Program-made: the position numbers and the translations under genes
Part shown: positions 29,039 to 59,462 of the stretch, one piece after another
How the letters are laid out: every line of letters begins with the position of its first letter
Numbering within the stretch: the stretch's first letter is position 1
Source of the DNA: Candidatus Borrarchaeum weybense
GTDB taxonomy: Archaea; Asgardarchaeota; Sifarchaeia; Borrarchaeales; Borrarchaeaceae
DNA length: 64,000 bases
Assembly (NCBI GenBank): GCA_019057385.1
Contig: JAHQJS010000007.1
Coordinates: forward strand, 384,001 to 448,000
Direction of reading: 5' to 3'
Notes under the pieces: model-generated
Seen by the model: the letters and a program-made list of their open reading frames with translations, nothing else
What the model was told of the DNA's origin: nothing
Databases searched by the model: none

Positions 29039-29309
29039 TCCCCCAATAACCAGATTTCAACTCACGTAACATCTCATATTCTTGATATAAAATATCCTCT
29101 GAAGTTCTTGAAGTCTGCTTAGTTAAATACTACATTATTACTTATAAAACCCCATCAGCTTTCGGAAAATCTACAGCTAATCTTATATATGAAGGAAGCG
29201 TTTATATCTCAACCCGTGGGCGGGTTCTCAATACCAAGAAGAAAATACGTTAAATGTTCTAAAAACCGCTTTTTGACTAATACTGCACTTAAGCTAGGAG
29301 TGTGTGTAC

Positions 29310-29647
29310 TAGTAACTGCGCAAGCAAGCACCAAAGCTTCAATGTGGTGATGAATTGAGTGAGTGTGAACGTTCATCACTTGCATCGAAGGGTCTCCCTA
29401 ATAGTTATATAGAAGGTATGAAGAAAATAGTAACAGTAATTGGAGGGATAATACACATACTTGTAGACATGGTGCATACTCCGATTGCATTAAATAAAAG
29501 CAGTACCTACGGGACGTAGGGATGTTAAGCCTGTGGAGACTAAATCCTCTACTGAGGCCGTGGAATACCTCAATAGTATCCCCTAGGTCATAGCAAGTTC
29601 GGGCGTCGAAGCAGGATGCCTCAACGCTTTAGCGTGAGGTAGTTCAC
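29310..29647 (+). mobile_element. Non-autonomous TnpB-type IS200/IS605 element retaining omegaRNA region, no tnpB
   Basis: Left end gcaagcaagcacc...gatgaattg; tnpB 3' remnant VPTGRRDVKPVE; right-end hairpin cctcaacgctttagcgtgagg-tagtTCAC; left boundary approximate. Confidence 0.78.
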
Positions 29648-29669
29648 TAAGATGGAAATGCTAGAAGAA

Positions 29670-29960
29670 GTCAATCACCCCTTAACAAGTTAAGGGGCTT
29701 GTTCCGTGAGGAATAAGAGTAATTGGTTGATTAGCCTAAGAGAGGTCATGGTGGAAACAACATGACGGTATCTACGTTATCAGGAGAGTTAAAGAACGCA
29801 CCAAGGGATGCTTCTCTAGTCCCTTGCTCTGTAAACGGTGGTTTAAACAGAGAGGAAACTCTCAGTGATCATCGTATAGTACTGACTGATAACCTTGGCG
29901 AAGAGAACCTACTCCCTTGATGTTGGGAGCGACGGGACTTGCGAGTACCCGTCATTAAAA
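29670..29960 (+). ncRNA. HEARO / IscB omegaRNA scaffold
   Basis: GTCAATCACCCC..GGGGCTTG..GTTGATTAG..CTACGTT..GGATGCTTCTCTAGTCC..GGCGAAGAGAA pattern with pseudoknot complement; 3' end approximate. Confidence 0.8.
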
Positions 29961-30075
29961 CACCACCTGAGGTTAGGTATATCATCCCCTGTCTTCGTAG
30001 AAAGGGTTGTGTGAGCAACGCCCGGGATCAATTCCTCACCCCAACAAGTTGGGGGGTCTCCTTGAGGTAATAATT
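29670..30075 (+). mobile_element. Non-autonomous IscB-type IS200/IS605 element (406 bp), no iscB
   Basis: Terminal hairpins with AACAAGTT loop; second copy at 58543..58947; followed by ATGA. Confidence 0.88.
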
Positions 30076-30447
30076 ATGATGCCATTTCAAGAAATGATGG
30101 AACAGATGAAAAAACAAATCCGTGAAGGCATCAAACTAAAACGTCCTTCTCCTAATTCCATACAAATGTCAATTGATAAAAACATTGTGGATGAGAATAC
30201 AAGCTCTCAAATTCTGAATCTTGATGAGATGAAGAAAAACATAGGTGAAATCACAGGCAACCCTGAAGATTTGATTTCATTTGAAGCAGGCGATGATAAT
30301 ATTAAACTAGGTTTCAGTGGAGAGGAACCAGCTAATAAAGTGTTTCAGTTTCTAAACGAATTTCTTTACGGGGATATGTTAGATAAACTTATGAAGCCAT
30401 TTCTTGAAATGATGGAGCAGATGAAAAAGAGTTTTGGCGCTGAGTAA
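30076..30447 (+). CDS. Hypothetical Met-rich protein; first 6 codons (29652..29669) detached by insertion
   Basis: Empty site reads MEMLEE|MMPFQEMMEQMKK in frame; element end supplies GAGGT before ATG. Confidence 0.75.
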   Translation: MMPFQEMMEQMKKQIREGIKLKRPSPNSIQMSIDKNIVDENTSSQILNLDEMKKNIGEITGNPEDLISFEAGDDNIKLGFSGEEPANKVFQFLNEFLYGDMLDKLMKPFLEMMEQMKKSFGAE

Positions 30448-30815
30448 TTCAATTAATAAGGTTAACAAGAAACTAACGATAAGTTATAGCCCATTTAATC
30501 TCTCTTTTTTTATCTTTAGTTTTCTATAATGTTCTTACTTACTTTATTCCAAAATAGTTGATTCTTATCGAAATTTTCAAACTGAAATCTCTTATAAAGA
30601 GATGTAACAGAAAAAAGATTTATAAATTTCACTTCAATGATTTTCAAAATAGTTTGTATTTAATTTACAAACTTCATTCTACCGAAAGAAGGTCCTGAAA
30701 AAGGATGAGTACCTTATGGTGTCTGTTGGACCATTGGATTTAGGAATTAGCATTGGAATCATTATCGCTATTTATTTACTTCTTTTAAAGCGAAATGCAG
30801 ATTCTCTTGAACGTT

Positions 30816-44087: not shown

Positions 44088-44215
44088 TTCTGTTTTACAA
44101 TTGCTTCGTGAACTACCACCCTACAAGTAGGGTGGCTTCCTGAATCATCCATTCCCCAGCGGGACATGTCAACCAGGCTCAACGGGCAGTCCCTGCCCTG
44201 ATGATAATGATGATG
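44088..44215 (-). ncRNA. TnpB omegaRNA with 3' guide GAAGCAATTGTAAAACAGAA
   Basis: Inferred from position overlapping the tnpB 3' end and right end; 5' boundary approximate. Confidence 0.6.
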
Positions 44216-58542: not shown

Positions 58543-58947
58543 AAGATTACCTCAAGGAGACCCCCCAACGTGTTGGGGAGAGAAATTGAGGTCAGGTATT
58601 TGACCATACAACCCTTTCTGCGGGGACAGGGGTTGGTGTACCCGATCTCGGGTGGTGTTTTAATGACGGGTACTCTCAAGTTCCGTCGCTCCCAACACCA
58701 GGGAGTTGGTTCTCTTCGCCAAGGTTATCAGTCAGTATTATACGGTGATCACTGAGAGTTTCCTCTCTGTTTAAACCACCGTTTACAGAGCAAGGGACTA
58801 GAGAAGCATCCCTTGGTGTGTTCTTTAACTCTCCTGGTAACGTAGATACCGCCATGGTTGTTTCACCACGACCTCTCTTAGGCTAATCAACCAATTGCCC
58901 TTGATCCTCACGGAACAAGCCCCTTAACAAGTTAAGGGGTGATTGAC
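58543..58947 (-). mobile_element. Non-autonomous IscB-type IS200/IS605 element (405 bp), second copy
   Basis: Colinear with 29670..30075; followed by ATGA. Confidence 0.88.
58655..58947 (-). ncRNA. HEARO / IscB omegaRNA scaffold, copy 2
   Basis: Same motifs as copy 1 with stem-preserving substitutions. Confidence 0.8.
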
Positions 58948-59060
58948 AACCTTCTTCTTCCCACTCATGTATCCTATGTTTGAGGCTTTTCACATTTCTA
59001 TAGCCGTATGCTTTTAGAAATAGTGTTGCATGAGCACTCTATGACCACTTCCGGCAATAT

Positions 59061-59265
59061 GTGAGCTACCTCGTGCTAAAGCATCGAGGCTTCCTGCTTC
59101 TACGACAGACTCGATCCCCTTGCGGGTTACAGAGGGGTTATCTCCACAGGCGTAAATCCCCTACGCCCCGTAGGTACTCATAGGGGATATTACAAAAAAA
59201 ACTATATAAACACCATACAATTCATCATTAGGCCAAAGCATTGGTGCTTTCTTGCTTAATTGTCT
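59061..59265 (-). mobile_element. 205-bp TnpB-type element: left end, TATA box, omegaRNA, right end
   Basis: TTAC|agacaattaagcaagAAAGcacc..; TTTATATA 59210-59203; gtacctacggggcgtagggg..cctgtggag..GAAGcctcgatgctttagcacgaggtagcTCAC. Confidence 0.82.
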
Positions 59266-59435
59266 GTAATAATTTCAGTATCTTTGTCCTTAGAGTACGA
59301 GTTTTTTTAAAAAAAATATATTTAAAGTAAAAACTTGAGAAAATTGTTTTATAACAAGATTGATCTTCGAATATCGCAGTTATTATCGCGATTTTCTCAG
59401 ATCACTAAAGAATAATTGATCATTGAATTTTTGAT

Positions 59436-59462
59436 TCACGGCTTAAGCGTGAGGTAGTTCAT
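59436..59462 (+). mobile_element. IS200/IS605 right-end remnant
   Basis: tcacggcttaagcgtgaggtagttca, similar to 29621..29647. Confidence 0.6.

Follow-up and report, generated by a model that had tools for sequence, protein, structure and literature searches.

The window analysed here is a stretch of 64,000 nt from Candidatus Borrarchaeum weybense, whose genome is a 4.18-Mb archaeal MAG of 8 contigs. Within this window, two protein-free elements, one with a TnpB-type and one with an IscB-type omegaRNA scaffold, lie on the same strand on either side of a 22-nt segment at the 5′ end of a small host gene, as follows:

29306-29309, plus strand: target-adjacent motif GTAC at the left end of the TnpB-type element, also GTAC in the empty site of the congener
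29310-29647, plus strand: TnpB-type non-autonomous element (PATE/MITE-like), 338 nt, found with BLAST and precisely absent from the congener
29501-29647, plus strand: TnpB-type omegaRNA scaffold, custom covariance model R1, positions 1-147
29648-29669, plus strand: 22-nt host-derived spacer TAAGATGGAAATGCTAGAAGAA, guide position for both scaffolds, near-identical in the congener
29670-30075, plus strand: IscB/HEARO-type protein-free element, 406 nt, edges set by the empty site of the congener
29670-29912, plus strand: HEARO / IscB omegaRNA scaffold, RF02033, full model 1-211
29913-30075, plus strand: 3′ module of the IscB-type MITE, its other transposon end, common to at least 12 protein-free copies, each time with the target motif behind it
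30076-30079, plus strand: target motif ATGA of the IscB-type element (TCAT on the TnpA top strand)
30076-30447, plus strand: interrupted small host gene, 123 aa, no Pfam family, ortholog 97% identical in Ca. B. yapensis

A preliminary description made from the letters alone had reported two back-to-back cassettes without proteins, and its coordinates held throughout: the first element ends with TCAC at 29647, the 22-mer follows at 29648-29669, and the second element begins with GTCAA at 29670 on the same strand. No ORF longer than 58 aa overlaps 29310-30075, and both elements are thus protein-free.

The TnpB-type element terminates in GGTAGTTCAC, and about 70 right ends in the genome share GAGGTAG(C/T)TCAC, directly after which their similarity breaks off. 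Since Rfam has no family for the TnpB-type scaffold, our own covariance model (R1) was trained on the final ~150 nt of 12 elements at other genomic loci, the majority immediately downstream of an intact tnpB, the copy at 29310-29647 being excluded. R1 matched 29501-29647 (+) from end to end with 137.9 bits (E 2e-32) and stopped exactly at TCAC; further matches were 59061-59179 (-) and, at 44108-44203 (-), the scaffold that belongs to the tnpB within the window. The consensus fold of 21 scaffolds, including this copy and that of the second pair described below (locus B), has 23 pairs, 6 of them with compensatory changes. By BLAST, the left portion of the element resembles a MITE class of ~300 nt, and its last 148 nt (29500-29647) share 86-89% identity with right ends from elements that carry a tnpB of 427-432 aa; in the full-length paralogs that encode these proteins, the ORF runs into the scaffold, i.e. 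the scaffold overlaps the 3′ end of tnpB. The element at 29310-29647 contains a degenerate left end, a TATA-like TTATATA (29405-29411) and a tnpB remnant of 33 codons (29418-29519), and it is a derivative with an internal deletion. Besides full-length elements, size classes of about 47, 200 and 310 nt are found in the family, and the present copy is degenerate in three mismatches at the left end, one changed scaffold base that is otherwise invariant, and a 3-nt deletion. TTAC, the motif of this family, lies 6-8 nt ahead of TAAGCAAG in 52 of 56 TnpB-type left ends, and GTAC at 29306 is off-consensus against it. The smallest class, mini-elements of ~47 nt of which there are about a dozen genome-wide (for example G000:C4:585181-585228), is made up of nothing but the start of the left end joined to the final ~25 nt of the right end, and stands behind TTAC.

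The second scaffold matched RF02033 at 29670-29912 (+) with 130.8 bits (gathering score 83, E 7.6e-27), and together with the R1 match this bears out the assignment of both scaffolds in the preliminary description. Its HEARO core is 89-93% identical over ~220 nt to scaffolds upstream of intact iscB. All 36 HEARO copies of the genome start at GTCAA with unrelated DNA on their 5′ side and, in agreement with the empty site, the HEARO 5′ edge is a transposon end preceded by variable guide DNA. An iscB ORF stands directly downstream of about 12 paralogous HEARO copies and is absent at 29670, and with no ORF above 58 aa this copy is thus a standalone derivative. The protein-free form of the IscB-type element consists of the HEARO core and a 3′ module of ~160 nt, in which a subterminal hairpin (30039-30056) and an SD-like GAGGT (30064-30068) were found here. 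A conserved ATGA follows the element end in 12 of 15 copies, 6-7 nt on for the protein-free form and at 30076-30079 in this copy. Inspection by eye showed that several of these ATGA ends precede apparent ORF starts, with the SD-like GAGGT of the element 7 nt upstream, and the supply of this GAGGT before ATGA could explain the tolerance of IscB-type elements at such places.

The congener in GTDB, the Asgard archaeon Candidatus Borrarchaeum yapensis, has neither element: its sequence runs through gtgtgtac, tagatggagatgctagaagaa and atgaaaaaac in direct succession. This empty site fixes the boundaries at 29310, 29647, 29670 and 30075, and both insertions are precise. Exact presence and absence at short target motifs with no duplication of the target, and hairpins at the ends, by which PATEs and MITEs are recognised, were both seen. 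The counterpart of the spacer in Ca. B. yapensis is near-identical, uninterrupted and placed behind AGGAG, and given the empty site the 22-mer is ancestral host DNA between two independent insertions. Ancestrally, the downstream gene probably began with these 22 nt, which would have held its first six codons (MEMLEE). By comparison with the vacant allele, the TnpB-type element was inserted at GTAC, just ahead of the old start codon, and the IscB-type element at an in-frame ATGA, where the gene can now use that ATG with the GAGGT of the element. Right behind the IscB-type element, 30 in-frame bases (30076-30105) are absent in Ca. B. yapensis, either by gain here or by loss there; this stretch has ATGA on both sides and resembles the 3′ region of the gene itself (30397-30437).

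Within the IS200/IS605 group, TnpB and IscB alike are guided by the DNA adjoining the right end as TnpA defines it. Read in reverse complement, the HEARO start (GGGGTGATTGAC in this copy, GGGGTAGTTGAC in many others) resembles the right end of the TnpB-type element, and the IscB-type target motif is located at the element end far from the HEARO start; the HEARO end is thus the right end, read on the opposite strand. Meers et al. (doi 10.1101/2023.03.14.532601) likewise place HEARO at the transposon right end. Two TnpA-defined right ends therefore face each other across 22 nt, which is why the spacer is shared. It had been proposed from the sequence that this one spacer serves two unrelated scaffolds, and the same 22 nt do occupy the 3′-flank guide position of the TnpB-type scaffold and the 5′-flank guide position of the IscB-type scaffold, but the sharing itself proved incidental: the gaps of other pairs range from 16 to 205 nt, guides do not overlap at the longer gaps, and co-oriented proximity is all that recurs. 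The shared spacer is a geometric by-product of tail-to-tail insertion. The 22-mer is unique in the window and in the genome. A target elsewhere was sought with the 22-mer and its 16-nt ends and rejected, there being no other genomic match at up to 2 mismatches with the right flanking motifs; the vacant allele is thus the only target, as for any IS200/IS605 flank guide. Against the vacant allele of the sister species, the IscB guide has one motif-distal mismatch and the correct ATGA, and the TnpB guide has a 1-nt indel near the motif, which is GTAC and not TTAC.

The genome also holds cognate genes. Matches to the tnpB TNB domain number 41 and iscB matches 16, of which 12 form one close family and are mostly open at ~400 aa, and there is a single Y1 tnpA gene (C7:194221), a candidate match to these element ends; Pfam agrees throughout (OrfB_IS605 and TNB for TnpB, RRXRR and HNH for IscB, Y1_Tnp for TnpA). 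Cognate nucleases and one TnpA, which the preliminary description had named as things to look for in trans, are thus present. We regard it as probable that the locus consists of two non-autonomous IS200/IS605 elements, inserted independently and tail to tail, with 22 nt of host DNA as a common guide position. Both would have been inserted in trans, presumably by the single Y1 TnpA of the genome, at a GTAC (TTAC in the family) for the TnpB-type and an ATGA for the IscB-type element that would have lain 22 nt apart at the 5′ end of the small gene. With the HEARO scaffold at the right end and on the opposite strand, such insertions would yield a tail-to-tail pair with the 22 nt in both guide positions. 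The two RNAs, if made, could load in trans onto the resident TnpB (427-432 aa) and IscB (about 400 aa), and the loaded nucleases would then cut only the vacant allele, i.e. the known homing or retention role. To the vacant allele of the sister species the IscB half fits, and the TnpB half fits poorly.

The locus is a pair of elements of known kinds, standalone omegaRNA elements (PATEs). Standalone omegaRNAs acting in trans are credited to Altae-Tran et al. 2021 in PMC10691335, and PATEs carrying omegaRNAs have been published (Meers et al. 2023, doi 10.1101/2023.03.14.532601). Like these, the present elements combine transposon ends and an omegaRNA scaffold without a nuclease or transposase gene, in multiple copies with unrelated flanks; PATEs are mobilised and loaded in trans with a guide from the right-end flank, and the geometry here is the same, loading being putatively so as well. 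Unlike PATEs, the two elements here belong to different nuclease families and face each other over 22 nt, they reside in an Asgard archaeon, and the IscB-type MITE joins the HEARO core to the end hairpins of another family. In Geobacillus stearothermophilus, according to Meers et al. 2023, one TnpA mobilises tnpB- and iscB-bearing IS200/IS605 elements, and both genomes have many nuclease-only elements, very few tnpA genes, related TnpB-type and IscB-type ends and HEARO at the right end, whereas the target motifs differ, those here being TTAC and ATGA. The arrangement also recalls a CRISPR repeat-spacer-repeat unit, with a short segment of guide length between two stretches of the same strand that encode structured RNA; however, the flanking scaffolds here are unrelated, the segment is ancestral host sequence and not acquired, and neither adaptation machinery nor an array was found at the locus, thus a CRISPR-like array was rejected.

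As to transcription signals, no run of four or more T was found on the plus strand of 29275-30100. TATA-like boxes occur at 29405-29411 within the TnpB-type element and at 29184 and 29201 in host DNA, and at 31-70 nt ahead of HEARO starts genome-wide such motifs show a mild excess, thus host promoters may suffice for unpaired copies. A scan for sigma-70 promoters was set aside, the host being an archaeon. Four public runs were aligned to 29200-30500, and the best coverage came from sediment DNA metagenomes; the two metatranscriptomes gave related HEARO copies with other flanks only and no contig over 29647/29670, and have no bearing on transcription of the pair. The joint transcript proposed in the preliminary description is hypothetical. 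A metatranscriptome contig of 309 nt represents a related HEARO element in circularly permuted form (30001 joined to 29715, with a 30-nt terminal overlap), as is characteristic of circular or tandem molecules assembled at k=31; tandem copies in DNA would also fit. In two other RNA contigs, each from a different study, ~29963 is followed by 47-70 foreign letters and then by 29670. Circular omegaRNA isoforms have been reported for archaeal TnpB elements (PMC12558985).

Whether such pairs are more frequent than chance was assessed with 143 exact GGTAGYTYAC motifs as right ends in the genome (19 occurrences for the reversed control motif). Ahead of HEARO starts, right ends on the same strand were found at distances of 22, 52, 91, 113 and 205 nt. 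These 5 co-oriented right ends within 210 nt compare with 0.47 expected under an intergenic null (0 of 3000 shuffles reached 5 pairs, P below 1e-3) and 0.77 under a local null with each right end kept within 5 kb of its true place (P 7.5e-4). The numbers are small, the distance thresholds were picked after the data had been seen, and related genomes do not count as independent. The adjacency on which the preliminary description had built thus exceeds, as a class, what insertion density alone accounts for, and a single pair at 25 nt or less (0.06 expected, P about 0.06) is not itself beyond chance. Nearby pairs are co-oriented in 5 of 6 cases in this genome, the one opposite-strand case being a mini-element, and the genus total with both congener pairs is 7 to 1. 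Regional strand bias as the source of this co-orientation was rejected, the strands of the two families being uncorrelated beyond 300 nt. Self-clustering was seen neither for TnpB-type elements nor for HEARO copies in this genome, and upstream of ordinary genes TnpB-type elements are co-oriented in 11 cases and anti-oriented in 20. HEARO copies with no such TnpB-type element upstream make up 29 of the 36; two further copies lie behind a co-oriented element, which is a truncated TnpB-type one in one case and an IscB-type one in the other. No report of preferential adjacency or shared guides was found by literature text search or in Meers et al. 2023 and PMC10691335, and the excess of co-oriented pairs is a modest lead, the sole part of the locus that is possibly new.

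One of these pairs is located in the same window:

58543-59265, minus strand: second, independent pair (locus B), with a TnpB-type MITE (59265-59061), a 113-nt gap and an IscB-type MITE (58947-58543)

Its HEARO scaffold at 58947-58705 (-) scored 129.6 bits with Rfam and its TnpB-type scaffold 80 bits with R1 at 59061-59179. Spacer and TnpB-type subfamily differ from those of the first pair, the ATGA downstream opens an ORF of only 14 codons, and an orthologous site was not found in four congeners with the query used. Beside this pair lies a partial right end (59357-59462, +). Further pairs, whose gaps measure 38 and 25 nt, come from two congeners. When the pattern of a right end, 14-44 nt and a HEARO start was scanned in 400 genomes of the phylum and, in a stricter form, over GTDB representative genomes, it was found in this genus only. 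The metagenome scan gave 74 matches, within the roughly 200 expected by chance; inspection and Rfam left about 7 genuine pairs with gaps of 16-39 nt, which speaks of recurrence and not of enrichment. The smallest gap seen was 16 nt, and gaps of 0-13 nt were not found in the genus. Composite transposition of a preformed pair was rejected, as flanks, spacers and TnpB-type subfamilies differ between pairs, and the outer ends of a pair are both left ends in TnpA terms.

Independent insertion alone leaves the roughly ten-fold excess of co-oriented pairs unexplained, and several additional readings of this excess were weighed. The foremost, which we regard as possible though doubtful, is neutral: few genes tolerate insertions at their 5′ ends, and two tolerated insertions would then coincide there. 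Both elements do lie in the 5′ end of a small gene that belongs to no known family, and IscB-type copies end at ATGA, several before apparent ORF starts, to which they bring an SD-like end. However, neither family clusters with itself, and random orientation would be expected of such coincidences, yet the genus shows 7 to 1.

Alternatively, the right ends of TnpB-type elements may make an oriented short-range niche for IscB-type elements, through transcript donation or as a landing zone for TnpA, a proposal that we consider rather unlikely as a whole. Promoter donation by the upstream cassette, suggested by the preliminary description for the IscB omegaRNA, is a possible reading of the adjacency bias. 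For it to be selected, the co-oriented TnpB-type element would read through its right end and donate to the IscB-type scaffold the transcript that this scaffold needs from outside to include its 5′ guide, and IscB-type copies so placed would be retained better through homing; the chance of this we put as low. The short-range enrichment (5 against 0.47 or 0.77), the co-orientation of 5 of 6 nearby pairs and of both congener pairs against 11 co-oriented to 20 anti-oriented cases at ordinary genes, the loss of strand correlation beyond 300 nt and the two more HEARO copies behind co-oriented elements all point in this direction, as do the TATA-like box at 29405 and the lack of any T run of at least four in 29275-30100 (+). 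On the other hand, most HEARO copies (29 of 36) do without such an upstream element, the TATA-like motifs 31-70 nt upstream of HEARO suggest that host promoters may suffice, and the numbers are small with post hoc thresholds.

The other form of such a niche, a bias of insertion, appears improbable to us. TnpB with its omegaRNA would pair with the single-stranded bottom strand of its flank at replication, or cut the vacated site with resection of the ends; in both cases the DNA just past the right end would stay single-stranded for longer and TnpA would then integrate another element there, from which tail-to-tail orientation and gaps no shorter than a guide are predicted. In all pairs, the strand with the IscB-type target TCAT is the complement of the TnpB guide, the smallest gaps are 16 nt and the genus lacks gaps of 0-13 nt, and both TAM-independent single-strand cleavage by TnpB and fork stalling are discussed in PMC10691335. 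Nevertheless, the bias is purely conjectural, the argument from the minimum gap is not significant (P about 0.3 for the genus cases), and tail-to-tail TnpB-type pairs, which are also predicted, were not seen in the genome.

That the pair is an assembly artefact of misjoined repeats, as might be suspected of two multi-copy elements in a MAG with 7% estimated contamination, is scarcely credible, as Logan contigs chain host flank, first element, spacer and second element with zero mismatches, an independently assembled DNA contig covers 29512-29744 likewise with zero mismatches, the congener flanks match on both sides of both insertions, and comparable pairs occur in other assemblies.

Independent tail-to-tail insertion thus being the preferred reading, two questions are at stake beyond it: what promoter serves an IscB omegaRNA whose guide lies outside the element, and whether OMEGA families interact within one genome. 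The present genome is a natural test bed for them, with its 36 HEARO copies, more than 100 TnpB-type right ends, one tnpA and a sister species with empty sites. If the niche reading were true, two unrelated OMEGA families would cooperate, and tail-to-tail pairs with gaps of 16-25 nt would yield one guide for Cas12-like and Cas9-like ancestors. A co-oriented excess that holds would speak for cooperation or targeting among IS200/IS605 families; if it fails, the locus would stand as a clean textbook example of flank-derived guides.

Several minor observations concern elements elsewhere in the genome. At G000:C6:389432-389960 (-), a full-length iscB element (409 aa) lies within a co-oriented TnpB-type element and cuts it after CCGATTGCA; the remainder of the cut element was not found downstream of this insertion. 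Upstream of one HEARO copy, G000:C4:144954-145250 contains two copies of a ~35-nt unit (AAAAGAATTCCTTACCTAATAA…GGATT) with 57 BLAST matches in the genome, and this unit may be a CRISPR repeat or another MITE. The TnpB-type MITE at G000:C6:872239-872550 (locus L035) lies within an apparent split or intron-bearing tRNA gene, in which ARAGORN called no tRNA at this locus, also with the MITE removed; the 5′ part starts with CCCCTGGTAGCTCAATCTGG, and the 3′ part ends with a TΨC-arm-like segment and the acceptor GGTTCAAATCCGGCCCAGGGGACCA. The sole SSU rRNA match of the genome, G000:C5:332567-335232, is 2,666 nt long against a model of 1,478 positions, and the insertion of ~1.2 kb that this implies is probably an rRNA intron.
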